This document shows positions 21,837 to 46,509 of a stretch of 64,000 nucleotides of DNA, in pieces (positions within the stretch are counted from its first letter, which is position 1; every line of letters starts with the position of its first letter). Location of the stretch: positions 7,072,001 through 7,136,000 of the forward strand of contig CBDBDQ010000005.1 in assembly GCA_965203905.1 (NCBI GenBank), read 5' to 3'. The stretch comes from Spirochaetia bacterium (GTDB lineage Bacteria > Spirochaetota > Spirochaetia > SZUA-6 > Bin103). The translations under genes were made by a program, and so were the position numbers. Under the pieces are notes generated by a model. That model made no database searches. It was not told the origin of the DNA and saw only the letters and a list, made by a program, of their open reading frames with translations.

Positions 21837-22975
21837 GCTCCCGTTACCTGCCGCAGCAGGTCGAAGAACGCGCGCTTGCGCGGCGTGTTGATGCTCCAGT
21901 CTATCGGCACGCTCTGGAAGCCGTCGCCGTAGTTGCCGGGGGCCAGCCCGCCGCCAGCACCGGGTCCCGGATCGAAGTACCCCCACCCCGCCCGCCGCGA
22001 CAGCGCCGCGGTGAAGTTGTTCTGTGCCCGGTCGAAGTCGAAGTGGTCGTCCTCGGTGAACATGATCGGCTGCCCGGCATAGGCCGGCAGGGCGCGGGTG
22101 TCGTCCACCATGGCCGCAATGCGCCGCGGCTCGGTCACGCCGTTGCCGTGCAGCAGGATGAAGTCGGAGGTGGCGCACACCGCGTCGCCCGGGATCCGGC
22201 CGCCGCCGTAGCTGGTGCCCACCAGCAGCCTGTCACCGTTCCGCGTCACCCGCTGCGCGCGTGCGATCAACTCGTGCACGCGGCGCGGCTGCAGGATCTC
22301 GTGTTCGTAGCGCGGCACGTCGCACTCGTTGTTGACCTCGATCACCACGTTGCGCCAGCCCCGCTGCAGCACCCAGCCGCAGGTCTCCTCCAGCGCGCGG
22401 CACACCGCGGCCTCGTCGCGCAGCCGCTCGTCCTGGCCGAAGTAGAAGATGCCCAGCACCACCACCATGCCGAGCTCGTCGGTACGCTGCAGGATCCGGT
22501 CCAGTCGCGCGAGATGGCCGCCGGGCTCCTCCAGCAAAGCGCCGTCGGCCGCGAACGGCGAATTGTGCCACGGCTGGGAGTCGGGCCCCGGCAGGCCGCG
22601 CCACAGCTCGGCGTCGGTGTACGCCACCTGCCGCTCGGCGAGCAGTTGCCGAAACGGCTCGGCGCGGTAGTAGCCGAACGGCGCTCCACCCTGCAGGTTC
22701 ACGGTGACCGCGGTCAGGCCGTGCTCACGGTAGAGCGGCAGGCAGCGTACGAACTCGTCGCTGTTGCGCTCCGCGTCCCAGCGGGCAGTATCGGGGTACT
22801 GCCACAGGAAGCGGGTCGCGGGATTGGCGTCATCGAAGACCGCGTTGGCCATGCGACTGTTCAGCAACAGGCCCTCGATCTGCCAGCCCCGGTACTCCCG
22901 CCCGCGATAAGTCGGTTTGCCGTTGATACGCCACGCGTCGCCGTCGATCGTGACGTGGGTCCTTCTACGCGTCAT
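21833..22975 (-). CDS. Putative clan GH-A-like TIM-barrel glycoside hydrolase
   Basis: IEVNNE, LLHGNG and PIMFTED motifs. Confidence 0.55.
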   Translation of the reverse strand: MTRRRTHVTIDGDAWRINGKPTYRGREYRGWQIEGLLLNSRMANAVFDDANPATRFLWQYPDTARWDAERNSDEFVRCLPLYREHGLTAVTVNLQGGAPFGYYRAEPFRQLLAERQVAYTDAELWRGLPGPDSQPWHNSPFAADGALLEEPGGHLARLDRILQRTDELGMVVVLGIFYFGQDERLRDEAAVCRALEETCGWVLQRGWRNVVIEVNNECDVPRYEHEILQPRRVHELIARAQRVTRNGDRLLVGTSYGGGRIPGDAVCATSDFILLHGNGVTEPRRIAAMVDDTRALPAYAGQPIMFTEDDHFDFDRAQNNFTAALSRRAGWGYFDPGPGAGGGLAPGNYGDGFQSVPIDWSINTPRKRAFFDLLRQVTGA

Positions 22976-23429
22976 TCAGCCGCTCGCCCGCGATGCGGGT
23001 TTCCGCCACGTCACGTGCCATTTGCCGGAGGTGGTCGTGCGCTCCGTCAGCCGGCGGGTACAGCACGATCCCGGTCCTGAGCGCGAGGGCGGCGATGGGG
23101 ATGTTCCCCGCGGCCACCTCCCGCTCGGTGTAGACGAAGAGATCGACACCCACTCCGAGGTCCAGGAAGTAATCGCGAAACAGGGCAGCGCGATCCAGGA
23201 ACGGTGTGTGGCAGGCATGCACCACCACCAGGAGATCCACATCGCTCGAGGGAACGGCGCGGTCGCTGGCCAACGAGCCGAACAGGACGACGCGTACTAC
23301 CTCTTCATGCCGGCGGCCCAGGTTCCTCGCCGCTTGGGTGATCCGGCTCATCAGCAGGTTTCGGTCGAGCCAGAACACCTTCACAGAACCGTAGGATCGC
23401 TTCTGAATGACCGATCGCGACATTGGCAT
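22965..23429 (-). CDS. Minimal nucleotidyltransferase (MNT antitoxin), now also in frame with the HEPN start at 23498
   Basis: LFGSLASDRAVPSSDVDLLVV...VDLFVYT motif. Confidence 0.85.
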   Translation of the reverse strand: MPMSRSVIQKRSYGSVKVFWLDRNLLMSRITQAARNLGRRHEEVVRVVLFGSLASDRAVPSSDVDLLVVVHACHTPFLDRAALFRDYFLDLGVGVDLFVYTEREVAAGNIPIAALALRTGIVLYPPADGAHDHLRQMARDVAETRIAGERLNDA

Positions 23430-23498
23430 CCTCATCGCGCGCGCACTTTCCAGGTCGCGCCGCGCCTGCCTGAGCCAGTCGCCGCTACGCTCGGCCAT
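23305..23498 (-). pseudogene. HEPN toxin with a large internal deletion
   Basis: N-terminus MAERSGDWLRQARRDLESAR is joined at ~23436 to the out-of-frame C-terminus DEDANVAIGHSEAILRFCEGVLA. Confidence 0.75.
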
Positions 23499-28003: not shown

Positions 28004-29209
28004 ATGGCCATGACCCGTGTCCCAGTGCCCCCCGAGATGCTTGGCTGGGCCTGTGAACGTGCCGGCATCGACGTGGAGCACCTTGCGAAGCGCATACCGC
28101 AGCTCCCGGCCTGGGTCCGGAGCGAGAGGCAGCCGACGCTGAAGCAGCTGGAGAAGCTGGCCAAACTCACCCATACGCCGCTTGGTTACCTGTTCCTCCC
28201 CGAGCCTCCCGGCGAGCGCCTACCGGTGCCGGACTATCGCACCGTGACTGACACTGCCCGAGGGGGCAGGCCGAGCCCTGATTTGCTCGACACGCTCTAC
28301 ACGATGCAACGCCGACAGGAGTGGCTGCGGGAGTCCCTCGTCGAGAACGACGTGGAACCACTTGCCTTCGTGGCAAGCGCCAGTCTTGCCGATGAGCCGG
28401 ACGTTGTAGGTCGCGAGATGCGACGGACTCTCGGCCTTGATGGGGGATGGGCGACGAAAGTCTCGTCTTGGCAAGTCGCAGTGAGCGAGTTGCGTCGCGA
28501 GATCGAGCAACTCGGCGTGATGGCGGTGATCAATGGTGTGGTGGGTAACAACACCTCTCGCCGACTGAGTGTGGAGGAGTTCCGCGGCTTTGCGCTCACG
28601 GATCCCTATTCGCCGCTGATCTTCGTGAACGGTGCGGACGCGAAGTCGGCGCAGATGTTCACGCTCGCTCACGAGTTGGCGCACGTATGGCTCGGCTCGG
28701 AGGGGGTCTCCGGCTTTGATGGTCTACACCCCGGCGGTACGGAGGTGGAGGACTGGTGCAACCGAACGGCGGCGGAGTTCCTCGCGCCCGCAGAGGAGAT
28801 CAGAGCGCGTTGGGCGATAGTCAGGCGGCGAGAGAGTCCCTTCGAGGCACTCGCACGGACGTTCAAAGTGAGCCCCGTGGTGGCCGCCCGCCGTGCTCTC
28901 GACCTGAATCTCGTTGAACGCAGCACCTTCTTCGACTTCTACAAGCGTTACGTGAAGCGGGATCGCGAGAGTGGCACCGAGCCGAGTGGGGGCGACTTCT
29001 ACAAGAACCAGAACACGCGTATCGGAGAGCTGTTTGCGACCCAGGTGGTGCGCGCGGCGATGGAGGGCCGCATAGGATTCAAGGAAGCCTATGACCTGAC
29101 AGGGCTGCGCGGAGGGACCTTTCAGAAGTACGCAGCCTCGCTGAACATCTGTTTCGATTGGACGGGAGACGGGCACGCAGGAGGGAGCACGCCACCCCCA
29201 TCACCTTGA
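28004..29209 (+). CDS. XRE HTH plus ImmA/IrrE metallopeptidase
   Basis: N-terminal HTH (PTLKQLEKLA), FRGFAL, FTLAHELAH and EDWCN motifs. Confidence 0.88.
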   Translation: MAMTRVPVPPEMLGWACERAGIDVEHLAKRIPQLPAWVRSERQPTLKQLEKLAKLTHTPLGYLFLPEPPGERLPVPDYRTVTDTARGGRPSPDLLDTLYTMQRRQEWLRESLVENDVEPLAFVASASLADEPDVVGREMRRTLGLDGGWATKVSSWQVAVSELRREIEQLGVMAVINGVVGNNTSRRLSVEEFRGFALTDPYSPLIFVNGADAKSAQMFTLAHELAHVWLGSEGVSGFDGLHPGGTEVEDWCNRTAAEFLAPAEEIRARWAIVRRRESPFEALARTFKVSPVVAARRALDLNLVERSTFFDFYKRYVKRDRESGTEPSGGDFYKNQNTRIGELFATQVVRAAMEGRIGFKEAYDLTGLRGGTFQKYAASLNICFDWTGDGHAGGSTPPPSP

Positions 29210-32452: not shown

Positions 32453-33261
32453 TGCTGCGCCGCGAGGACCGGGTGCGCGCCCTCAACACCGTGCTGATGG
32501 TCGTCGTCACCACGATTCTGATGTTGCCGGTCATCCACGCCTTCGGGCGTTCGATCGAGCCACCCGGCGGCCTGGGCAACTATCTGCGCGTGCTGACCGA
32601 CGTCCGCCTGCCACGGTTCTATTTCAACAGCGTCGTGGTCAGCGCGGGCACCATCCTGCTCACCGTGGCGTGCGCGAGCCTGGCGGGGTTCGCGTTCTCC
32701 AAGCTCCGGTTCCCGTTCAAGAACCTGTTGTTCATCATCCTGCTGATTACCCTGCTGGTGCCGTTCACGACCATGATCATCCCGCTCTTCGTGTTGATCC
32801 GAGGGCTGGACCTCTACAACACCTACCTCGCCCTGATCCTGCCCCTGGCGGCGTTCGGAGTGCCGTTCCACACCGTGCTCACCGCCAACTACCTGAACAG
32901 CCTGCCCAACGAACTGATCGACTCGGCGCGCATCGACGGCTGCTCCGACCTGGGCGTGTTCTGGCGCATCATGCTGCCGTTGAGCCTGCCAGTGCAGGCG
33001 GTGGTGATCGTGCTTACCTTCCTGGGGTCGTGGAACAACTACATCCTGCCGCTGATCATGCTCAAGGACCAGCAGATGCACACCGTGCCCCTTGCCGCGG
33101 TGAGTTGGGCTTACCAGGCGGGCGCGCTGTCCCAGTTCGGTGAGATATCGTACGACACCCTGTTCGCGGCGCTGTTCCTGCTGGCGGCGCCGACGCTGAT
33201 CATCTTCCTGCTGTTCCAACGCGTGTTCATCGGCAGCGTCACCTCCGGCGCGATCAAGTAG
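32452..33261 (+). CDS. Carbohydrate ABC permease (MalG-like)
   Basis: LIDSARIDGC and SWNNY motifs. Confidence 0.9.
   Translation: MLRREDRVRALNTVLMVVVTTILMLPVIHAFGRSIEPPGGLGNYLRVLTDVRLPRFYFNSVVVSAGTILLTVACASLAGFAFSKLRFPFKNLLFIILLITLLVPFTTMIIPLFVLIRGLDLYNTYLALILPLAAFGVPFHTVLTANYLNSLPNELIDSARIDGCSDLGVFWRIMLPLSLPVQAVVIVLTFLGSWNNYILPLIMLKDQQMHTVPLAAVSWAYQAGALSQFGEISYDTLFAALFLLAAPTLIIFLLFQRVFIGSVTSGAIK
33157..33261 (+). repeat. Permease 3' end, copy 1 (repeated at 34278-34382)
   Basis: 105-bp ungapped alignment with about 6 substitutions plus a TAG/TGA difference. Confidence 0.92.
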
Positions 33262-33271
33262 TGCGGCGCCG

Positions 33272-33449
33272 TCAGGCGCGGGCGGGGTGGATCGGATCGA
33301 CCCATTCCACCTTTTCCGGCTCCTCGGCCACGGGGATGTCCAGGTTCACCACCACCGGTTCCTGGTCTCGGCGCACCAGCACGCACTCCAACGCCTCCTC
33401 GCGGCTGGCGTTGATCGCCTGGTGCGGCACGTACGGCACGTAGATGAAG
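33272..33449 (-). pseudogene. Duplicated 3' fragment of the cupin gene (matches 36087-36267)
   Basis: FIYVPYVPHQAINASREEALECVLVR...VDPIHPARA*, with one 3-bp indel relative to the intact gene. Confidence 0.92.
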
Positions 33450-33450
33450 A

Positions 33451-33479
33451 TTGACAACCCGGACACGGAAGCGTACCGT
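33451..33479 (+). promoter_or_regulatory. Sigma70-type promoter of the ncRNA-NYN cassette
   Basis: TTGACA-N17-TACCGT. Confidence 0.75.
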
Positions 33480-33485
33480 AGAAGA

Positions 33486-33562
33486 GCATCCCGTTGGGAT
33501 GGTTTGCGTGCGGCCCCGTTGGGGTCATGTTGATCTGGGCCCCACTTCGGGGCCCTTTTCTT
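33486..33562 (+). ncRNA. Candidate ~75-nt structured RNA (putative RNA antitoxin or attenuator) upstream of the NYN gene
   Basis: Hairpins CATCCC-GTT-GGGATG (33487-33501) and GGCCCC-GTT-GGGGTC (33512-33526) share CCCGTTGGG, followed by a terminator hairpin. Confidence 0.5.
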
Positions 33563-33564
33563 TT
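33537..33564 (+). terminator. Intrinsic terminator between the promoter and the NYN gene
   Basis: GGGCCCC-ACTTC-GGGGCCC followed by TTTTCTTTT. Confidence 0.8.
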
Positions 33565-33578
33565 CTTGAGTCTGGGCT

Positions 33579-34250
33579 TTGACTGATTCGTATGCAGGGT
33601 TCATAGATGTCGGCTTCCTGCATGCCGAAGGTGCGAGGAAGATTCGCAAGAAGAGAAGCTCCGTCCGACTCCAGGCAGCGGAAGTCGTACGCTGGCTCCA
33701 AAGCCTCACCCGAACGCCGTTCGTCGACGGATCATTCCTGAGGGCCTATTGGTACGACGCGGCTTTTGGCCCTGAGCATCCGCGTTACCGCGACCAGCGA
33801 AAGTTCCTCGACGCGATCGCGCATACACCGGGAGTCCAACTGCGGCTCGGTCACCTCGCGGAGCATCCCTCCAGATTGGAGAAGCCGGTCAGGCAAGCCC
33901 TGGCCTCCACGGCCTATCGTCTTGGCATCGAGCCCGACCGTCTGACCGCCGAGTTCGATCGACATTGGACCTTTCGGCCGGAGCGCCGACAGAAGGGCGT
34001 CGATACGCTGATCGCGCTGGACATGGTTCGCCTCGCAGGCCGTTCGGTGTTCTCCACCGCCGTGTTGATTGCCGGCGACCGGGATCTGGCGGAGGTAGTA
34101 CGCACAACACAAGACTTCGGAGTACGAGCGCTTGTCGCAACCCCGGACGAGGACAGCGTCTCCAAAGAGTTGGCCCAGCTTGCCGACGAAGTGATAGTCA
34201 TGAACCAGGATGAGCTTGAGAAGATGATGGCCGACCGCCTCTCAGCGTAG
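33579..34250 (+). CDS. NYN (LabA/DUF88, PIN-like) ribonuclease
   Basis: FIDVGFL, YWYDA, QKGVDTLIALD, AGDRD and SKELAQLADE motifs; TTG start. Confidence 0.9.
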   Translation: MTDSYAGFIDVGFLHAEGARKIRKKRSSVRLQAAEVVRWLQSLTRTPFVDGSFLRAYWYDAAFGPEHPRYRDQRKFLDAIAHTPGVQLRLGHLAEHPSRLEKPVRQALASTAYRLGIEPDRLTAEFDRHWTFRPERRQKGVDTLIALDMVRLAGRSVFSTAVLIAGDRDLAEVVRTTQDFGVRALVATPDEDSVSKELAQLADEVIVMNQDELEKMMADRLSA

Positions 34251-34277
34251 CCTCGCGCCACCGGCCGGGCGTCGGCA

Positions 34278-34382
34278 ACCCTGTGCGCGGCACTGTTCCT
34301 GCTGGCGGCGCCGACGTTGATCATCTTCCTGCTGTTCCAGCGCGTGTTCATCGGCAGCGTCACCGCCGTCGCGATCAAGTGA
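34278..34382 (+). repeat. Permease 3' end, copy 2 (orphan fragment)
   Basis: Aligns with 33157-33261. Confidence 0.92.
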
Positions 34383-34435
34383 TTCGCTCTGCCCATGGTG
34401 TAGTCAGTCCTCGCTTGAGATGCCCTCGGCGACCC

Positions 34436-36013
34436 TCACATGCCCCACACGTCGACCGGCACCGCGCCCTGGCCGCGCCGCTGATGCGCCGAGTGGCGCC
34501 GGAGATGGAATACCTTCTCCTCCCAGCTCCGGTTCTCCCGCCGGTCGATGACGACCAGGTGCCCCGCCTCGGCAGCGCAACGATCCACGTACCTTGCCGT
34601 CTGCTCCACGCCCTCGTCCATGACGCTCTCAAGCCCGTTGTACTCGCGGACCACCTTGCACTCCACCACGAACTCCTGCACCCGGCCTGCCAGCGGCCAC
34701 ACGATCAGCAGGTCGACCCGTCCGCTCCCCAGGGCGTACTCCCGCTCGATGCGGCCGCCGCCGTTCACGATCCGCTGCAGGTACGCCTGCAGGAGCAACT
34801 GCGGCCACGCCTCCTCGTACGCGAAGCGGGTCCTCCAATACTGCGAGTTACGGCGGAAGAAGCTCTGAAACTCCTCCATCAGCAAGTCTGCGTCCAAGCT
34901 GCCGTCCGCCCTCATGTACCGTGGCGGTGACAGGTCCAGCGTCTCCTGCGCCGCCCATGCGAGCTCGCGCGGCAGCACCTCGGCGTAGATCGGGTTCGCC
35001 ACCCGCAACGGCGCATCGGGGGCCACCAGCCCCAGGTCGCGTACGTACGAGATATCGCGGTCCGTAAGGGTGTGCCGGTCCGTGCCGCTCAGCATCGGCT
35101 CGATCACCCGTCGCACGCGATCCTCGCGCAGCTTGTCCGCCAGATAATCCAGGTGCGTCACCCGGTTCACGATCAGCTCCTCGCGGGCCGCGGCGATGTC
35201 GTCCGAGGTCACCGTTCGCGAACGGTCTTCGCACAATGCCTTGTTCTCGAAGCAGGCCACGTTCGCCAGCGCGTTCACCAGCCAGGGCTGGCCGCAGGTC
35301 AGCGTCCACACCGCTTCCAGCGCCTCCGGAGCGAACGCCTGGCCCGTGTCCTTGGTGTGCTGATGCAGCAGAGCCAGCGTCTCTTCGTGCGAGAAGTCGC
35401 CCATCCGCAACGACTTCGCTGCGATGTTGAACGGGCTGCCCGCGGCGCCCATCCGGTAATCGCGCGGGTCGCGCATGCCGCACAGGACCACGCTGTGGGG
35501 GAAGCGCGCCGGGCGGCCGGGGTAGCCGGCGCGAAGCTGTTGGAGCACCGAGAGCAGCGAATCACCCACCAGCGTATCGATCTCGTCGATCAGCAGCACC
35601 AGCGGCCGCGGCGACGCCTCGGCCCAATGCTCCAGTGCCACGCTCAACGCCAGGTCCGGCCCGAACTCGGCGAGGGTTGCCGCCCAGATGTCCCGAAGGA
35701 ACCGGTCGCCCAGAGCAGCACTCGCCGCGTTCGCCAGCGCGGCGAGCACCACGCGCATCGCCCGCTGCACGTCGTCACGGGCGGTGCGGGCGGTTTCTAC
35801 CGTAACGTACACGCACCCGTAGTCGCGCTCGTTCAGCAGTTCGGCCAGCGCCAGCAGCGCCGAGGTCTTCCCCGTCTGCCGTGGCGCGTGCAGCACGAAG
35901 TACTTCTTGTCGCGCACCAAGCCGAGCACCGCGCCCAGATCGATCCTCGACAGCGGCGCGATCAGGTAATGATCGATCGGGTTTACGGGGCCGGCGGTGT
36001 TGAACGAACGCAT
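34436..36013 (-). CDS. AAA-like ATPase with a C-terminal PD-(D/E)XK nuclease domain
   Basis: FNTAGP, APRQTGKT, LIDEID and REYALGSGRVDL...VECK motifs. Confidence 0.88.
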   Translation of the reverse strand: MRSFNTAGPVNPIDHYLIAPLSRIDLGAVLGLVRDKKYFVLHAPRQTGKTSALLALAELLNERDYGCVYVTVETARTARDDVQRAMRVVLAALANAASAALGDRFLRDIWAATLAEFGPDLALSVALEHWAEASPRPLVLLIDEIDTLVGDSLLSVLQQLRAGYPGRPARFPHSVVLCGMRDPRDYRMGAAGSPFNIAAKSLRMGDFSHEETLALLHQHTKDTGQAFAPEALEAVWTLTCGQPWLVNALANVACFENKALCEDRSRTVTSDDIAAAREELIVNRVTHLDYLADKLREDRVRRVIEPMLSGTDRHTLTDRDISYVRDLGLVAPDAPLRVANPIYAEVLPRELAWAAQETLDLSPPRYMRADGSLDADLLMEEFQSFFRRNSQYWRTRFAYEEAWPQLLLQAYLQRIVNGGGRIEREYALGSGRVDLLIVWPLAGRVQEFVVECKVVREYNGLESVMDEGVEQTARYVDRCAAEAGHLVVIDRRENRSWEEKVFHLRRHSAHQRRGQGAVPVDVWGM

Positions 36014-36086
36014 TTTTTTTTGGTCCGGCTTCCTGCGAAGGGTATCACAGGCGCATTCCCGACCTGATGTGTCCCAGCCGGCGCGG

Positions 36087-36557
36087 CTACTCGCGGGCGG
36101 GGTGGATCGGATCCACCCAGTCCACCTCTTCCGGTTCCTCTGCCACGGGGATGTCCAGGTTCACCACCACCGGTTCCTGGTCGCTGCGCACCAAGACGCA
36201 CTGCAGCGCCTCCTCGCGGCTGGCGTTGATCTCCTGGTGCGGCACGTAGGGCGGCACGTAGATGAAGTCGCCGGGGCCCGCCTCCGCCACGTACTCCAGG
36301 CGCTCGCCCCAGCGCATGCGCGCCCGGCCGCGCACCACGTAGATCACGCTCTCCAGCGCTCCGTGGTGGTGGGCGCCGGTCTTGGCGTTGGGATGGATCT
36401 CGACCGTGCCCGCCCACAGCTTCTCGGCACCGGCGCTGGCGCGGTTGATCGCCGCCGCCCGCGTCATTCCCGGCGTCTGCGGCGTGTTGAAGTCCAGCCG
36501 CTCGCTCGTTACCACGCGCACGCCGTGCGTACGCCAATTGCGCTCCGCCTCTGCCAT
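36087..36557 (-). CDS. Cupin domain protein
   Basis: TGAHHHGALE and GDFIYVPPYVPHQE motifs. Confidence 0.9.
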   Translation of the reverse strand: MAEAERNWRTHGVRVVTSERLDFNTPQTPGMTRAAAINRASAGAEKLWAGTVEIHPNAKTGAHHHGALESVIYVVRGRARMRWGERLEYVAEAGPGDFIYVPPYVPHQEINASREEALQCVLVRSDQEPVVVNLDIPVAEEPEEVDWVDPIHPARE

Positions 36558-37588
36558 CCGCTGTCCCCGCGCCCATCCTACCCGCCGCGCGCTGCAAGTG
36601 GCGACACCCGCGCTCGGCCGAAGGAGCACGCCTCGGCGTATGGCTGGCGTGGCTGGCGGCGCCGACTTGCGTGGGCGCGGGCGCACGGCTACCATGACCC
36701 ATTGTCGGATCACGGTTCCAAGGAGGGCCCCTATATGCCACGCTCCGTTTCCGCAGTTTCGCTGATCGTCATTCCCCTGCTGATGGCGACCGTCCCGCTG
36801 CTGGCCAGCGGTACCGAGGAAGGCGGCGCAGCCGCCGGCGCCACGGGCGGCGCCAACATGGCCCTCGCCATGATCGACGAAGAGCCGTACATCGACCACA
36901 TCCACGCCAGCCCCGCGGCCTACACCGCCGCCACCGGCACGGCGCTCGACACCTTCTACGAGGCGCCCGTGCTGGCCGCCCTGGTGGCCGAGGGCAAGCT
37001 GCCGCCGGTGGAGGAACGGATCGGCCGTGATCCGCAGGTAATCCGCCCGGCGTTCGAGATCGGGCAGTACGGCGGCATCCTCAACGACGTCGGCAGCGAG
37101 GGAGACGCCGGACAGCTCGTCGAGGAAGGGCAGCAGCCGATGGCCAAGTGGAATCCGCCGGCCAACATCTTCTATCCCAACATCGCCCGCACCTGGGACA
37201 TTTCCGACGACGGGCTGGTGTTCACGCTCAACCTGCGCCACGGCATGAAGTGGTCCGACGGCGAGGATCTCGACGCCGACGACTTCGTGTTCTTCTACGA
37301 GGCGATCCTCGCCAACGAGGAGATCAACGCGGTGACCCCCGAGCCGCGCGGCCGCTACCGGCCCGGCGGCGAACTGATGCAAATACGGGTGCCGGACCGC
37401 TACACCGTCGAGTACACCTTCGCCGCGCCGTACCACAACGCCGCCGAGAGCGGCTGGGCGCGGGGCCGTTCCTTCGCCCCGGAGCACCACCTGAGCAAGT
37501 ACCACCTCGAATACAACGACGAGTAAACATTCGGTCTACCGGTGTGGGACCGCTGGACACATCCGGACCGGTGTGCTACGAATGAGGT

Positions 37589-39214
37589 GTGGGAGGGTTC
37601 TGGCGGAAAACGAGTGGCTGCACGGCGGCGTGCCAGAGCCAGATGGACGAGTTGCGGTGCGAGGTAGTAGAGCTGCGACGACAGGCGCGCTATTACCGCA
37701 GGATGCACGGCAAGGCGGTAGCGCGCGAGCAACGGCTGAAACAGAAACTGCAAGCGGCACGGGCCAAGCTCAAGGAACTGCGCCAGCGCCTGCGGGAACG
37801 CTGGGCACGGCGCCGCGGCAGCGAGAAGCGAACCAGGAGTGGCGGCGCTCCTGAGGCAACCGCCGCGCCACCGCGGCGCCGCGGTCAGCAACCCGGGGCG
37901 CCAAGCCATGGTCGGCGCCGGCACGCACACCTGCCGGTACAGGTTGAAGCACACGACGTTGCCCCGGACCGGCGCCGCTGCGCGGCCTGCGGCGCTGAGT
38001 ATCATTCGCACGGCAGCGAGGATTCCGAGCAGTTGGAAGTCGAGGTGCGCGCCTACCGGCGGGTGATCAAGCGGCGGCGCTACCGCCGCAGCTGCCAGTG
38101 CACGGCGGCCGCGGCGGTGCTCACGGCGCCAGCGCCGCCACGGCTGATCCCGAACGGCATCCTGGGGATCTCGATCTGGGTGACGGTGCTGCTCGACAAG
38201 TATCTGCTGTACCGGCCCACGCATCGGTTGCTCGCGGATCTACGCACGCATGGGCTGGATCTTGCCCAAGGCACCGTCACCGACGGTCTGCGGCGTCTGG
38301 CGCCGTTGTTCGCGCCACTGCGCGAGGCGCTGATCGAACGCAGCCGCACGAGCGAGCACTGGCATGCTGACGAGACCAGCTGGCAGGTGTTCGAGGCGGC
38401 CAGCGAGGACACCTGCCAGCGCTGGTGTCTGTGGCTGTTCTGGAGTGCCGAGGTGGTGGTATTCACGCTCGATCCAACCCGTTCGGCGCGGGTGCCGAAG
38501 CAGCATTTTGCGACCGTGACGGGGGGCGTGGTGAGCGTCGACCGCTTCTCCTCGTACAAGCGGCTGGCCAAGGATACCGAGCTGGAGTTGTCGTTCTGCT
38601 GGGTGCACATGCGCCGCGACTTCATCACGGTAGCCCATGAGCGGGACGATCAGCAGGAGTGGGCCGAGCAGTGGCTGGCTGACATCGCTACGCTGTATCG
38701 CCTGAACGACGAGCGTCTTGAGGTGCGTGGTGAGCCCGCGCAGTACGCGGCGGCCGATGCGGCGTTGCGGGCGGTGGTGCAGGCGATGGAAGAGCGACGA
38801 GAGCGCGAACTGGCGCAGCAGCCGAAGCTGGCGGCAGCGTGTGCGAAGGTGCTGCGCAGCATGCGCAACCACTGGCAGGGGCTGACGCGGTTCGTCGAGG
38901 ATCCCGACTTGCCGCTGGACAATAATCAAGCCGAGCGTGCGCTGCGCGGCCCGGTGGTGGGGCGCAAGAACTACTACGGCTCGGGGGCGCAGTGGAGCGG
39001 TGAGTTGAGCGCGGCGCTGTTCAGCCTGTTCCACACCCTCGAACGATGGCAGATCAACCCGCGTACTTGGCTGACCGAGTACCTGAGCGCCTGTGCGGTC
39101 GCCGGCGCTCGCGTGCCTGAAGACTACGAGCGGTTCCTGCCCTGGCACCGTCCCGAGGCGCGCTTGCTGCCCCGCGGCTCACCCGCCAAGCTGGTCGACG
39201 ACCGTGCCGCCTGA
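37589..39214 (+). CDS. tnpC: IS66 DDE transposase (start codon uncertain)
   Basis: Coiled coil, CAACG zinc finger, HADET, SVDRFSSY, CWVHMRRDF and DNNQAERALR motifs. Confidence 0.93.
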   Translation: MGGFWRKTSGCTAACQSQMDELRCEVVELRRQARYYRRMHGKAVAREQRLKQKLQAARAKLKELRQRLRERWARRRGSEKRTRSGGAPEATAAPPRRRGQQPGAPSHGRRRHAHLPVQVEAHDVAPDRRRCAACGAEYHSHGSEDSEQLEVEVRAYRRVIKRRRYRRSCQCTAAAAVLTAPAPPRLIPNGILGISIWVTVLLDKYLLYRPTHRLLADLRTHGLDLAQGTVTDGLRRLAPLFAPLREALIERSRTSEHWHADETSWQVFEAASEDTCQRWCLWLFWSAEVVVFTLDPTRSARVPKQHFATVTGGVVSVDRFSSYKRLAKDTELELSFCWVHMRRDFITVAHERDDQQEWAEQWLADIATLYRLNDERLEVRGEPAQYAAADAALRAVVQAMEERRERELAQQPKLAAACAKVLRSMRNHWQGLTRFVEDPDLPLDNNQAERALRGPVVGRKNYYGSGAQWSGELSAALFSLFHTLERWQINPRTWLTEYLSACAVAGARVPEDYERFLPWHRPEARLLPRGSPAKLVDDRAA

Positions 39215-40100
39215 GGCGGTGCGCTACTGCGGCCGGCCCTTCAGCGAGCAGGAGCTGCAGTTGATCCGCGCGCTCATCGCTGAGGACCCTACCCGCCATC
39301 GGTTCGCCCTCTCGAAGGTGGTGTGCGAACGGCTGCACTGGCGGCGTGCCAACGGACAACTGAAGGACATGAGCTGTCGCGTCGCGATGCTGCGCATGCA
39401 CCGCGACGGGCTCATCCGGCTGCCGGCGCCGCGGCGGCGTCACTACAACGGCACGCTGCGCCGCCGTCGTACCGCGCAGGCGGAACCGGAGCTGCCGATC
39501 AGCGCCCGCGTCGATGAGCTGCCCGCGCTGCAGGTACGACCGCTGGCCGATCAGCGCGAAGCGCTCCTATGGCGCGAGTACGTGGACCGCTACCACTACC
39601 TTGGCTATACGCCGCTACCGGGTGCGCAGCAGCGCTACTTGGTCACCTGCCAGCGGCAGGTGCTGGCGGTGGTCGGCTTTGGCGCCAGCGCCTGGAAGGC
39701 GGCTCCTCGCGACCGCTTCATCGGCTGGAGCGTTGCCCAGCGCGAAGCGCGGCTGCACCTGGTGGTGAACAACGCCCGCTTCTTGATCCTGCCTTGGGTG
39801 CAGGTGTGCAATCTCGCTTCCACCGTGCTGGCGCGCATCAGCCGCCGGCTGCCCGCCGACTGGCAGGCGCGTTATGGGTACCGACCGCTGCTGCTGGAGA
39901 CCTTCGTGCAGTCCGACCGCTTCGCCGGTACCAGCTACCGCGCCGCCAACTGGACCCACGTCGGACAAACCCAAGGACGCGGCAAACTCGACGTACGTCG
40001 AATGCACACGCTGCCCACCAAAGACATCTGGCTCTACCCGCTCAGGCGCGACTTCCGCCGTCGACTGTGCGCTCCTCTTGATCCGCCCCCCAACCTGTAG
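39204..40100 (+). CDS. DUF4338 (DruA-like, Mom/GNAT-related) protein with an N-terminal helical domain, inside the IS
   Basis: RYCGR, YHYLGY, RDRFIGW, NNARFLILPW, NLAS, LLETFV and GTSYRAANW..VGQTQGRG motifs; its stop codon lies in the right TIR. Confidence 0.85.
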   Translation: MPPEAVRYCGRPFSEQELQLIRALIAEDPTRHRFALSKVVCERLHWRRANGQLKDMSCRVAMLRMHRDGLIRLPAPRRRHYNGTLRRRRTAQAEPELPISARVDELPALQVRPLADQREALLWREYVDRYHYLGYTPLPGAQQRYLVTCQRQVLAVVGFGASAWKAAPRDRFIGWSVAQREARLHLVVNNARFLILPWVQVCNLASTVLARISRRLPADWQARYGYRPLLLETFVQSDRFAGTSYRAANWTHVGQTQGRGKLDVRRMHTLPTKDIWLYPLRRDFRRRLCAPLDPPPNL

Positions 40101-41416
40101 ACCGAATACTTACAACGACGATGCCGCAAGTGTCGCCAAGGAAGAAGGTTACGAGACCTGGATGGACGCGTTCGCGGCCCACCATTCCGACCGCGGACAC
40201 TCCGGCTCGCGGCCGGTGGCGCACCGCTTTCCCGAGCTGCCCACCACTGACACCTGGGTGCTGAAGGAGGCCAAGCCGGGAGTCCGCTTCTGGGGCCGCA
40301 ACCCCTTCTACTGGAAGGTGGACACGGCCGGCAATCAGCTCCCCTACGCCGACGGCGTGCAGGTGCTGGTCGTCGAGAACCCGGCCGACGTGGTGCCGGC
40401 CAAGGCGATGGCCGGCGAGCTCGACTGGCCCAAGAACGAGTTCATGGACATCGCCGACGCACCGGCCTACCGCCGCAACGAGGCCTCGGGAGGCTACCGC
40501 ACCCATCTCTGGCCCAGCTATGGCGGCGCCTTCGCCTTCGGCGTGGTGCTCAACTACACCAACAAGGATCCGGTCAAGCGCGAGCTGTTCAACGACCTGC
40601 GCTTCCGCCAGGCGCTGTCGCTGTCGATCAACCGCCAGGAGATCAGCGACAAGCTGTACTTCGGCGAGTCGGTCCCCTGGGTGGCCCCGGTCAGTCCCAC
40701 CTGGACCGGGTTCGAGGACTGGATGGCGACCCACTATGCCGAGTACGACGTGGACCGCGCCAACGCGCTGCTGGACGAGATCGGGCTGGCCTGGGACGCC
40801 GACCGCACCTGGCGCGTGCAGTCGGACGGCAAGCCGCTGGCCATCGACGGCAGCTACAGCAGCAACCTGCAGACCACCGCCGACGCCATGGAGCTGCTGT
40901 CCCGCTACTGGGCGGCGATCGGGGTGCGGATGGAACCGAAGTTCGTGCAGGGCGAGCTGTGGACGGAACGCGGCTTCGCCAACCTGTGGGACGCCGGCTT
41001 CGGCGGTCACGGGACTCCCGAGGCGGTGGCGCGTGCCGACTACCCGCTGAACCTGATCCCGCCGTGGCACTACTACCACTGCTGTCCCAAGTCCTCCTAC
41101 CCGTGGGGCACCTGGTACCACACGTTCGGCGAGCAGGGCGAGGTGCCGCCGCCGGAGATCCAGCGGCTGTTCGAGCTTGCCGATGAGTGGGCGAAGACGA
41201 AGCCGGGCACCCAGGAGTATCACGACACGGTCAATGAGCTGATCAGGTTGAACGTGGAGAACCTGTACGCGATCGGCACCGTGTCGACGCCGCCGACGCC
41301 GATGATCGTGAACAACCGGGTGGGCAACGTGCCGGGTGAGATCGGCTACCTGCTGATGAGCCAGGTGGAGACCTACAACATCGATACGATCTACATAAAG
41401 AGCTGATGATCCTTCG

Positions 41417-43580: not shown

Positions 43581-43682
43581 TCTCCCGGCCGCGCTCCCGG
43601 CACCGAGCAGCGGTTCCGAGGGCTCCGAGTCACCTGATTCGCCCGCCCCGCGGTTGCGCGTATAATTCGGTTGGACCCTGCC

Positions 43683-44663
43683 ATGCCCACGCGCGCTCCC
43701 CGAAATCGTACCGTCTCATGCACCGAAGCGGATCGCGAGCGACTGGCACACCACGTCCTGCGGCTGGGTGGCTCCGTCTCCTGCCGCGATCTTGCCGGCC
43801 ATGTTGTCGCCGGCGACTTCTTTACCGTGGCGAAACACTTCCCCTCTGCCTTCGTCGACCTGCTCATCCTGGATCCGCCATACAATATTTCCAAGGACTT
43901 CAATGGCAGCGCCTTCCGGAAAAAACCGGCAGATGAATACCGCCGTTGGTTTCAGGATCTCATCGATCTTCTCATGCCGATGATGAAACCGAACGCGACG
44001 CTGTACGTGTGTTCGGACTGGAGCACATCGACACTGATCTTCCCCGTCCTGAACGCGGCATTTCAGGTCCGGAATCGAATCACCTGGGAACGGGACAAGG
44101 GTCGAGGCGCGAAGACGAACTGGAAGAACAACGCCGAGGACATCTGGTTCTGCACCAGGTCGGACGAGTATTACTTCAACGTGGAGGCGGTGAAGCTGAA
44201 GCGCAGGGTGCTCGCACCCTACCGCGCGCACGGGACGCCGAAGGACTGGTCCGAAGAGTCCAATGGCAAGTTCCGCCTGACCCATCCGTCGAACATCTGG
44301 ACCGACATCACCGTCCCGTTCTGGTCGATGTCGGAAAACACCGACCATCCGGCTCAGAAGCCGGAAAAACTGATCGCGAAGCTGACTCTGGCGAGCTCGA
44401 GACCGGGCGACTGGGTATTCGATCCTTTTCTCGGCAGCGGCACCACCGCGGTCGTTGCGGAAAAGCTCTCACGCCGTTGGTGCGGCGTCGAGATCGATGC
44501 CGAATACCAGTGTCTGGCACTCAAGCGGCTCGCCGCGGCCAGGACCGATCGGTCGATCCAGGGTTACGCTGACGGCGTGTTCTGGGAACGCAACGCTTTT
44601 TCCGGCCGCACGCGGAGGGCCGAACATGACAGCGCAAGCGGACAATCGGATCTGTTCGCATGA
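43683..44663 (+). CDS. DNA amino-methyltransferase (N6-A/N4-C, beta class)
   Basis: DPPY precedes HPAQKP and DPFLGSGTT; TATAAT at 43661. Confidence 0.92.
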   Translation: MPTRAPRNRTVSCTEADRERLAHHVLRLGGSVSCRDLAGHVVAGDFFTVAKHFPSAFVDLLILDPPYNISKDFNGSAFRKKPADEYRRWFQDLIDLLMPMMKPNATLYVCSDWSTSTLIFPVLNAAFQVRNRITWERDKGRGAKTNWKNNAEDIWFCTRSDEYYFNVEAVKLKRRVLAPYRAHGTPKDWSEESNGKFRLTHPSNIWTDITVPFWSMSENTDHPAQKPEKLIAKLTLASSRPGDWVFDPFLGSGTTAVVAEKLSRRWCGVEIDAEYQCLALKRLAAARTDRSIQGYADGVFWERNAFSGRTRRAEHDSASGQSDLFA

Positions 44664-45328
44664 AATCGCGGTTCTACTACGACGGTCACCATCAGGCCGT
44701 AGCCATCGGTATCAGAGATCACCTGAATTCGGTAGCCGACTTCCTCACACCGCAGACTGCCAACAGTCCCAGAGCTGTCGGTGACGCGCTGGAGTCGATC
44801 GTCGCCGAGCAGTTCGATGCTCTCCTCGGCGCGTGGTGCGCAGAATACTCAAGCGACTTCGCCCGTCGTGCTATGGCGGACCTCGCTTTCACCGATCGAG
44901 AGGGCATCTACTCAGTAGTGGACGTCAAGACCCACCGGGAAGACACTCGATTCAACATGCCCAACCTCACGTCGGTGGAGCGGCTTACCCGATTCTACGA
45001 ATCCGATGCCAACGTGTTTGCGCTATTGCTCATCAGGTACTCGATCCAGGACACGAGCTTTACGGCATCCGAAGTCATATTCGCGCCGATTGAGTTTCTG
45101 GATTGGGACTGTCTTACGATAGGGGCGTTGGGCTGGGGGCAGATCCAGATAGCCAACGCAAACGACGTCCGCGTCAGGGATCGATATTCGCGGAAGCGAT
45201 GGATGTTGGAACTCTGCGACACGATGATCGAGTTCTATCCGAGGGAGATCGACAAGATTCGTAGCAGGATGGACCGATTCGCTGACGTGCGGGCATACTG
45301 GGAATCGAAGCAGGACGTATGGGAATGA
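44660..45328 (+). CDS. Putative type II restriction endonuclease
   Basis: ATGA-coupled to the methyltransferase; GDALE...MADLAF...VDVKT PD-(D/E)XK pattern. Confidence 0.7.
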   Translation: MKSRFYYDGHHQAVAIGIRDHLNSVADFLTPQTANSPRAVGDALESIVAEQFDALLGAWCAEYSSDFARRAMADLAFTDREGIYSVVDVKTHREDTRFNMPNLTSVERLTRFYESDANVFALLLIRYSIQDTSFTASEVIFAPIEFLDWDCLTIGALGWGQIQIANANDVRVRDRYSRKRWMLELCDTMIEFYPREIDKIRSRMDRFADVRAYWESKQDVWE

Positions 45329-45344
45329 AGGAAGGCGGCTACGA

Positions 45345-45625
45345 AGAGTCATTCACCCGGACCATAAGATTCTCGGAGTAGCGACGGTCTTCGTGGGGAC
45401 TCTCGTCCCCGTACAGTGGTTGATCGACTACCTGGAGGCGGACCGATCGCTGGCCGAGTTTCTGGACGACTTCCCCAGTGTTACCGGCAGCCAAGCTATC
45501 GCAGTGCTGGAACAGGCGAAGTACGACATCGACTCACTCATGCCGCCGATGCCTGCCGTCCGCGACGCGTTCCGCGACGTGGAGCCTGCGCGGATCATAG
45601 AGCTTGTCGAACAGCGCTGCCAGAC
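45345..45625 (+). pseudogene. Decayed DUF433 antitoxin fused to the tail of a PIN (DUF5615-like) toxin
   Basis: RVIHPDHKILG..VFVGTLVPV..LIDYLE...FLDDFPSV...AVLEQAK runs at ~45521 into YDIDSLMPPMPAVRDAFRDVEPARIIEL; no proper start codon. Confidence 0.6.
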
Positions 45626-45723
45626 GCAGTGCAATGTCGCCGGGGTCGCGCATCGAGCCGACGACGTCTTCGGGCCTCGGGTGCGATCAATGTACGCATG
45701 TGCGCTCCTTGGCATGAAAATGA

Positions 45724-46509
45724 TCACGTGAGCTGCATGCCGGATGAGCCTCTAATTGTGGCTGTAATCTTTGCACGCCGGGGCGAAATGACCTCATCAA
45801 AGATCTCCTGAACGAAAGGCGCAACCCAATATTGAGAATCAGGTGCCGGCTGTACTCCACATTCGAGGGCATCGGTATAGTCACTAGACATCATATAGTG
45901 ATCCTTCAAGAAAAAGACGTACCCAAGGTGCATAACAAGGAGATCTTGTGCATCGGCTCTGAACGTGTCTATCCACGGCATTCGAGTCGGAAGACTAACT
46001 TCGTTGTCATTAACCAATACATGGTGATAGAATTTGTAGTGTGTATGGGCATTGCAGCGATCTCGTATAGATCTGTACCGATTTTCAGATAGTAGAATGG
46101 TTATCGGTTTGGCCATCTGTGCATTGGTGATGTACTTGCGCATTGTTTCATATTGTGGCAACTGTGCTTTGCCGGCCAACCATTTTTGAATTTTTTTTAC
46201 GATGAAGTTCTGAGTGCTGAAATGCTCGGCCAGGTAGAGCTTGGTGTAAATGTCGATAACAGCCGAATCGTAGTATTTTCTAAGTAGACAATATGCATCG
46301 TTGATCCGTCCCGACAGAAGAATAGCTTGGATAGATTCAAGTGTGCCATGCATGGAGCTGTACGTGTAGCTATCAATATTCTCTATTGATTTGACTCCCA
46401 TAGTTGGGAAGCGAAATACGGACATTGTCAGACTTTTGTAGAAGGAGATATTTCGCGCGAGGTCTGCGAATACGCTATGGGACTGGTATGCCTCGCTATT
46501 TACTTGCAT
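45724..46509 (-). CDS. Low-GC hypothetical protein, possibly HEPN-like
   Basis: 261-aa ORF with DAYCLLRKYYDS and RDRCNAHTH; promoter TTGACA-N17-TAGACT at 46647-46619. Confidence 0.65.
   Translation of the reverse strand: MQVNSEAYQSHSVFADLARNISFYKSLTMSVFRFPTMGVKSIENIDSYTYSSMHGTLESIQAILLSGRINDAYCLLRKYYDSAVIDIYTKLYLAEHFSTQNFIVKKIQKWLAGKAQLPQYETMRKYITNAQMAKPITILLSENRYRSIRDRCNAHTHYKFYHHVLVNDNEVSLPTRMPWIDTFRADAQDLLVMHLGYVFFLKDHYMMSSDYTDALECGVQPAPDSQYWVAPFVQEIFDEVISPRRAKITATIRGSSGMQLT

Follow-up and report, generated by a model that had tools for sequence, protein, structure and literature searches.

A hairpin leader and an NYN gene form one compact unit

The stretch analysed here, which we call the window, comprises 64,000 nucleotides (nt) of an 8-Mb Spirochaetia genome (GCA_965203905.1, contig CBDBDQ010000005.1, positions 7,072,001 to 7,136,000 of the forward strand). 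Just past its middle lies a small cassette in which a promoter-like site, a short hairpin RNA ending in an intrinsic-terminator-like hairpin and a gene for a predicted endoribonuclease of the NYN family (PF01936) follow each other directly. The pairing of such a hairpin-terminator RNA with an NYN gene, which recurs in many groups of bacteria, suggests an undescribed RNA-controlled nuclease module. The elements of the cassette are as follows.

33449..34270, plus strand: self-contained cassette of ~820 base pairs (bp), consisting of promoter, leader RNA and NYN gene, delimited by alignment with the locus of a 95%-identical orthologue (L026)
33451..33456, plus strand: -35-like hexamer TTGACA, read from the sequence
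33474..33479, plus strand: -10-like hexamer TACCGT after a 17-nt spacer, read from the sequence
33486..33565, plus strand: predicted leader RNA of ~80 nt, its 5' end placed ~7 nt past the -10 hexamer and its 3' end at the U-tract, both being estimates
33487..33501, plus strand: hairpin H1, CAUCCC-GUU-GGGAUG, 6 bp and a triloop near the 5' end of the RNA, apex at 33490-33498, read from the sequence
33512..33526, plus strand: hairpin H2, GGCCCC-GUU-GGGGUC, 6 bp and a triloop, apex at 33515-33523, read from the sequence
33537..33567, plus strand: intrinsic-terminator-like hairpin GGGCCCC-ACUUC-GGGGCCC (33537-33555) followed by the U-rich run UUUUCUUUUCUU (33556-33567), from the sequence and a terminator scan
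33579..34250, plus strand: predicted NYN (PF01936) endoribonuclease of 223 amino acids with a TTG start and no promoter of its own, from a Pfam match

A preliminary description of this DNA had listed TTGACA-N17-TACCGT, the two hairpins with their shared apex and a GC hairpin with a U-tract, and all of these are present. It had placed the TTG codon 14 nt after the terminator; the start in fact lies 23 nt past the terminator stem and 11 nt past the U-rich run, with an in-frame TGA just upstream of the TTG at 33579. The 80-nt RNA has a fold energy of -37.7 kcal/mol (z = -3.1), and none of 200 shuffled sequences folds as well. Sites that combine a hairpin with a U-tract are scarce under a strict scan, with only 76 in the whole genome. 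The element CCCGTTGGG occurs in 57 copies on both strands of the genome, yet two of them fall within 25 nt of each other at the leader, the DNA of which is single-copy. C-NUU-G hairpins of at least 6 bp number 499 in the genome, mostly inside genes, and no second leader-like pair was found among them. Rfam 15 gave no meaningful match in 33000-34600 at E up to 10, and none at gathering score in 13 related loci. A 43-amino-acid open reading frame (ORF) at 33451-33582 was considered as a leader peptide and dismissed, as its start falls inside the -35 hexamer.

The leader structure is conserved and covaries

Close orthologues of the NYN protein (67-95% amino acid identity) are found in four of the 10 other genomes of the genus, and none of comparable identity was found in 30 searched genomes of other genera. 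In all four the -35 hexamer, a -10-like hexamer, three hairpins with the CCC-GUU-GGG apex and the terminator are retained in the ~130 nt that lead up to the start codon, and in two of them the terminator hairpin itself has a GUU loop. The -35 hexamer reads TTGACA or TTGACG in the window, in the four orthologues and in an orphan leader described below, and the -10 position of the orthologues is occupied by TATAGT, CACTAT or CACTTT at the same spacing. The sequence upstream of the -35 hexamer is unrelated among the window and all four orthologues. Among six three-hairpin leaders H1 carries compensatory changes from A-U to G-C and from U-A to C-G, with 100% of the alignment cells able to pair.

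Wider scans extended the family to 14 loci in genome contigs (genome_contigs; labelled Spirochaetia, Gammaproteobacteria, Gemmatimonadetes, Thiotrichales, Spongiisociaceae and Solirubrobacterales), 41 metagenome loci and 467 proteins at E <=1e-5. Single-sequence folding and a hairpin scan that uses no model, by which the hairpins were first seen, revealed a common plan in most of these loci. A promoter-like site is followed by a GC-rich hairpin of 7 bp, the loop of which is 3 nt long (GUU, AUU or UUU) and has a C-G closing pair. After 6-10 nt of spacer comes another hairpin of this type with a U-tract behind it, and a Shine-Dalgarno sequence and the start codon complete the plan. We built a covariance model, R1, from 16 such leaders. 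With six duplicate loci left out, R1 matches 25 of the 37 searched subfamily loci, which come from several phyla; the matches lie on the strand of the gene and end 6-41 nt before the NYN start. On the window leader R1 scores 58.7 bits at 33508-33563, where H2 corresponds to helix 1 of the model. The covarying hairpins and terminator that the preliminary description had proposed to look for upstream of NYN homologues are therefore there, in two thirds of the loci searched.

The covariation was evaluated in a model-fitted alignment of 28 leaders, 27 of them distinct (A4). Across the 27, 96% of cells pair, and in 11 of the 14 pairs both sides change. The alignment has a covariation score of 0.467; shuffles score 0.164 (0 of 500 reach 0.467) and slid partners no more than 0.142. 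Helix 1 covaries in all seven of its pairs, and in helix 2, the terminator hairpin, 99.5% of cells pair. Across phyla both hairpins have an apex in which a C-G pair closes a loop of 3 nt, the 5' arm being rich in pyrimidines and the 3' arm in purines, and the loop of the terminator hairpin in most relatives is a C-NNU-G triloop. The number of hairpins per leader is two or three, ~25 nt apart, and their form is kept; the single-stranded spacer is short and weakly conserved. A promoter-like pair scoring at least 9 precedes 18 of the 27 leaders, compared with 1.2-2.8% of random windows, and in two-hairpin leaders the -10 hexamer ends 1-12 nt ahead of the first hairpin. The structure of the leader RNA is thus genuine, with compensatory changes.

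A cross-paired fold, which could act as an antiterminator, is the structure of minimum energy both in the window RNA and in the alignment of the six three-hairpin leaders. Its support across the 27 leaders is poor (68% pairing, score 0.169), and we rejected it.

The leader is specific for NYN genes and can persist without them

In its own genome R1 gives three matches at E <0.1, all directly upstream of NYN-family genes: the window leader and the leaders of two distant NYN paralogues, each with a promoter-like site, one or more hairpins and a terminator. The genome encodes seven PF01936 genes, and five of them (the window gene, L101, L103, L105 and L106) have one or more hairpins and a U-tract terminator immediately ahead of the start codon; the other two, L100 and L104, have no such leader. 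These five genes belong to different subfamilies and their leader sequences are unrelated. In 41 related genomes there are 15 R1 matches at E <=0.01. Nine stand before NYN-family ORFs, one before an NYN remnant (roughly the first 20 codons of a paralogue), two are orphan leaders, and the remaining three are ordinary terminators, all at or below 26.4 bits. A further 150 genomes of the phylum yielded two matches (28.3 and 28.7 bits), both ordinary terminators. The leader motif is therefore specifically tied to the NYN family, across phyla as well as among paralogues of the same genome.

The more complete of the two orphan leaders (L085, in G006:C25), from a species of the same genus, retains its TTGACA-N17-CACCGT promoter, three C-GUU-G hairpins and the terminator, all intact. 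The locus is syntenic with the NYN locus L029 of genome G007, to which it is 89% identical along 1554 nt up to the end of the terminator, where the homology breaks off. Compared with G007, H1 of the orphan has changed from CGUCCC/GGGACG to CGCCCC/GGGGCG, a compensatory change. No NYN remnant was found after this leader by tblastn at E up to 10. A GNAT-type acetyltransferase-like ORF lies ~80 nt past it, where the relatives have NYN, and the leader may have been co-opted for this gene. The other orphan, in genome G021, is a decayed copy in which only H2 and the terminator are left; it matches the window at 93% identity along 55 nt and has neither the -35 hexamer nor an NYN gene. The RNA unit can thus outlive the NYN gene, as seen in this one intact case.

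A different layout was seen on a plasmid of Kitasatospora purpeofusca (NZ_CP108563.1, 2702-3639; L098), which encodes an NYN homologue, 39% identical, that has no hairpin leader. It is translationally coupled, by an overlapping TGA/ATG, to an upstream ORF of 100 amino acids, and the pair sits in a low-GC patch adjoining dnaB and dciA. The arrangement is reminiscent of type II toxin-antitoxin pairs.

The protein is an ordinary NYN-family member

The NYN domain of the window protein is recognised by Pfam over residues 71-208 (E 1.4e-11, 45.5 bits compared with a cut-off of 24.2), and six aspartates (D10, D60, D142, D148, D167 and D169) are invariant in 13 sequences, in line with the intact acidic motifs of the preliminary description. 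An AlphaFold2 model has a mean predicted local distance difference test score of 89.1. The best Foldseek matches of the model are 2qip (E 6.9e-8, template modelling score by target 0.70) and the MARF1 NYN domains 5yaa and 6fdl, and the motifs GVDxxxxLD and GDRD of the protein align with DVGITLD and GDGD of 2qip. By profile, modelled fold and conserved aspartates the window ORF is an ordinary member of PF01936, with its catalytic activity predicted. A search of NCBIfam with the protein gave no match. In a published classification of PIN-like proteins the group NYN.COG1432 is entered as 'function unknown' (PMC5499597).

Relation to known RNA-controlled systems

The closest analogue is RCd22-AbiF of the phi027 prophage of Clostridioides difficile, in which the AbiF protein belongs to the Abi_2 family and the RNA carries the abiF motif (RF03085; bioRxiv 10.1101/2025.04.15.648962). 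According to that preprint, an RNA of ~100-130 nt that contains two abiF motifs and a Rho-independent terminator is transcribed from a SigA promoter; the short form predominates, the terminator cuts abiF expression, deletion of the RNA raises it 17-fold, and the RNA neutralises AbiF in cis and in trans by direct binding (bioRxiv 10.1101/2025.04.15.648962). The order of elements, likened to AbiF-type systems in the preliminary description, matches that of this experimentally studied unit: a promoter, two copies of a hairpin motif, a terminator, a ribosome-binding site and a nuclease-like gene, with no internal promoter. There are differences as well. The cassette protein is an NYN protein of PIN-like fold, not Abi_2 (Pfam reports NYN only); RF03085 has no match in the window at E up to 10, nor at gathering score in 13 related loci; and in the cassette the last copy of the motif is the predicted terminator itself.

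The type III toxin-antitoxin systems ToxIN, CptIN, TenpIN and AvcID share with the cassette an RNA gene directly upstream of the effector gene, in one transcription unit and with no protein antitoxin. The predicted terminator at 33537-33567 also stands between RNA and gene as it does in these systems, an arrangement found in 25 of 37 loci; in ToxIN the terminator sets the ratio of RNA to toxin. As it is described, AvcID shows that type III systems are not limited to ToxN-like ribonucleases. The cassette protein does not, however, belong to the ToxN, CptN or TenpN families (Pfam finds NYN only, NCBIfam nothing, and the fold is that of NYN), and its RNA consists of plain stable hairpins, whereas ToxI is described as a pseudoknot (PMC5772629). 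The cassette thus shares the architecture of the type III families and of abiF and has neither their defining protein nor their defining RNA.

A stem-loop also precedes, or is carried by, the transcripts of other ribonuclease genes. In the rne and rnc leaders of E. coli and in Regnase-1 mRNA it is recognised by the enzyme itself, and Regnase-1 is a PIN-like ribonuclease that prefers triloop hairpins. To our knowledge these leaders contain no intrinsic terminator and never occur as orphan units.

The preliminary description had held that NYN proteins are not a described family of type III toxins. A full-text literature search agrees with it, as we found nothing that links NYN proteins with type III toxins, RNA antitoxins or leader motifs, and a survey of 224 motifs makes no mention of NYN, DUF88, LabA or nuclease (PMC5737381).

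The cassette is mobile and lies between duplicated host fragments

Homology between the window and the L026 locus begins at GATTGACA (33449) and fades ~20 nt past the stop codon, and the flanks of the two are unrelated. Contigs of runs X15 and X1 break just before GATTGACA, at the same left border. The cassette is a compact, horizontally mobile unit of ~820 bp. The third-position GC content of the NYN gene is 0.70, lower than in the neighbouring genes up to ~6 kb away in both directions (0.75-0.94, mostly 0.82-0.94). A variant cassette occurs on a single contig of run X7, which carries a sponge metagenome label; it has an 11-nt deletion in H2 (33518-33528) and, on the same contig, an in-frame 204-nt deletion inside the NYN ORF (33903-34108).

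The immediate surroundings of the cassette are formed by fragments of host genes.

33157..33259, plus strand: 3' end of an ABC permease gene, repeated at 34278-34380 with 94% identity (family D2)
33264..33437, minus strand: detached piece from the 3' end of a cupin gene; the corresponding end of the full gene lies at 36079-36252 and is 90% identical (family D1)
34278..34380, plus strand: permease 3' end again, as a detached copy beyond the cassette (family D2)

The full cupin gene is recognised by Pfam Cupin_2 on 36090-36500. The junction of permease 3' end and cupin 3' end is therefore present twice (33157-33437, and 34278-34380 with 36079-36252), and the NYN cassette sits between the copies. 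The second copy is split by an AAA-ATPase/PD-(D/E)XK gene on the minus strand (34436-36013). The arrangement looks like an integration that came about through recombination with DNA of a diverged relative rather than through transposition.

Across 24 loci (64 flanking ORFs scanned) we found neither a conserved neighbour nor a protein antitoxin, consistent with the earlier statement that no protein antitoxin lies next to the gene. A few of the neighbours are Cas genes (L027), transposases (L048 and L058), an IrrE-like protein (L038) and an MrfA-like helicase (L037). No relative was found in viral contigs (viral_contigs), and a phage collection gave one weak match of 28% identity.

Further away in the window, an SBP_bac_5 gene is apparently split into parts that cover profile positions 3-87 and 114-348, with an IS66-family transposase gene between them (36750-37523, 37589-39211 and 39874-41403). 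Other genes of mobile or defence type in the vicinity (22968-23498, 28004-29206 and 43671-45728) encode a nucleotidyltransferase-domain protein, an IrrE/M78-like protein, an N6/N4 DNA methylase followed by another ORF, and a DUF433 protein. Elsewhere on the contig (G000:C5) we noticed a conserved structured element of ~150 nt, a CGCCCGC-GUU-GCGGGCG hairpin followed by GAGAGTAGCC...TACTCTC, with 18 pattern matches of which ~17 look genuine, none of them in the window; it has no Rfam match. The one copy examined (L099, C5:5998100-6000300) lies upstream of an SBP_bac_5 gene, and the element may be a 5' leader common to a family of paralogous transporters.

Proposed mechanism and alternatives

We propose that a mobile cassette encodes an NYN nuclease throttled by a terminator, with the leader hairpins serving as a ligand of the enzyme, and we give this mechanism as a whole a probability of about 0.5. 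A sigma-70-type promoter would drive an RNA of ~80 nt with two C-GUU-G triloop hairpins and a third hairpin that would be the intrinsic terminator. With only 11 nt between the end of the U-rich run and the start codon, a promoter would not fit downstream of the terminator, and NYN would therefore be made only from transcripts that read through the terminator. It is likely that the terminator throttles NYN in cis in this way, leaving the cell with far more of the short RNA than of NYN mRNA. Most simply, the terminator would be constitutive and leaky and so keep the RNA abundant and NYN scarce. What is the role of the hairpins then? Because their apex is kept across phyla, their number varies between two and three and an orphan leader has been maintained, we suspect that they are read by a protein, for which NYN is the obvious candidate. 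By analogy with RCd22 and AbiF, the apex (a C-rich arm, an NUU triloop and a G-rich arm) may well be the cognate ligand of NYN, acting in cis and in trans either as a decoy or inhibitor or as a feedback substrate; we see the chances of this as about even. That NYN is also toxic when freed, which would make the two a true type III-like toxin-antitoxin pair, is a more tentative step, and we consider it doubtful.

Several observations weigh against this mechanism and have to be set beside it. The promoter, described earlier as near-consensus, does have the TTGACA hexamer and the 17-nt spacing; its -10 hexamer TACCGT, on the other hand, agrees with TATAAT at only three of six positions, and a simple promoter scan did not report the site. 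We regard it as supported because its position is conserved in the relatives. The 'repeated-hairpin' RNA repeats in hairpin form and apex only: Tandem Repeats Finder returned no rows at score >=30 on the leader, so there is no sequence repeat, whereas the known type III antitoxins consist of tandem sequence repeats. The A4 alignment was fitted to the model and so favours pairing. The H1 and terminator apices of one leader resemble each other no more than those of different leaders do (permutation p 0.11 and 0.24), and concerted evolution of the two apices, which we had considered, is not significant. R1 has no match in 12 of the 37 related loci; in a gammaproteobacterial group (L030-L036) no more than a GUCCC-N3/4-GGGAC hairpin and a second, degenerate hairpin is retained, and at least three lineages (L033, L037 and L044) have no comparable hairpins, though their NYN proteins keep every invariant aspartate. 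Because these aspartates are kept without hairpins, an obligatory antidote is unlikely in the leaderless lineages. As to a role in defence, the flanking genes in the 24 loci are mostly metabolic or housekeeping, with no enrichment of defence genes. The only match of the protein in PADLOC-DB 2.0 is a partial one to HEC-09 (E 5.3e-10, residues 135-215), an NYN candidate that gave no phage protection in the test published as a preprint. Finally, one metatranscriptome contig runs from a foreign upstream context through promoter and leader into the ORF. The run is available as contigs only, which show neither RNA ends nor a discrete small RNA and may contain DNA, and this contig may represent DNA or read-in transcription across the promoter.

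Some of the same observations would also be expected if the leader acted purely in cis, the 5' hairpin stabilising the transcript and the constitutive, leaky terminator holding down a potentially harmful ribonuclease and shielding it from external transcription, with NYN blind to the RNA. The terminator is strong and no antiterminator pairing is supported, the leaders of different NYN subfamilies are alike in architecture and not in sequence, some lineages lack the leader altogether, and the hairpin apices show no concordance within leaders. However, neither a terminator nor a stabiliser needs the same unusual C-G-closed 3-nt apex that both hairpins carry across phyla. Such a role also sits poorly with a hairpin number that varies from two to three while the form is kept, and with an intact orphan leader that has undergone compensatory change and persists without NYN. 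We therefore hold a purely cis-acting leader to be possible and rather unlikely.

The orphan copy in G006, with a promoter and terminator of its own, could instead indicate that the leader is an independent small-RNA gene with its own targets, and that NYN rides on its read-through or processes the RNA. Trans-acting small RNAs usually consist of a 5' hairpin, a short single-stranded spacer and a terminator hairpin, and the leader has this build. However, its single-stranded spacer is short and weakly conserved, and in the 41 and 150 genomes searched every match of at least 30 bits either adjoins an NYN gene or remnant or is a homologue of such a leader, which makes a small-RNA gene of this kind improbable. 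A third explanation, in which the hairpins act as DNA and serve as recombination or insertion signals of the mobile cassette, would account for the different contexts and sharp borders of the cassette and, in this genome, for its place between duplicated host fragments. Yet the hairpins are found on one side only, where they follow a conserved promoter and run into a U-tract, and the ends of the cassette are not linked by an inverted repeat. Moreover, G-U pairs, which work in RNA and not in DNA, are kept in the stems: the alignment of the 27 leaders contains G-U cells, and one pair of H2 is G-U in four of six sequences. We consider this explanation very improbable.

Implications for the NYN family

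The RNA motif is not in Rfam, and together with its gene it would constitute an RNA-leader-controlled nuclease module in which both the RNA motif and the nuclease fold are new. There are thousands of bacterial PF01936 NYN proteins, and a covarying RNA tied to their genes offers the first concrete clue to their control and perhaps also to the RNA shape that they recognise. With less than 1 kb and all parts included, the cassette can be cloned and tested directly. The boldest extension of the mechanism is that all PF01936 NYN proteins are RNA-antidoted nucleases, each subfamily having a promoter-proximal hairpin-terminator RNA of its own, which would both limit how much enzyme is made and bind and silence it, with orphan leaders such as that of G006 serving as anti-addiction immunity genes. 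We find this doubtful; if true, it would reveal a very large and unrecognised class of type III-like toxin-antitoxin or defence modules. As for the mechanism proposed here, in which NYN recognises the hairpins of its own throttled transcript, RNA-antitoxin logic has so far been known for ToxN-like toxins, AvcD and AbiF, and if the leader RNA also neutralises the enzyme, this logic would extend to a new and widespread nuclease fold.

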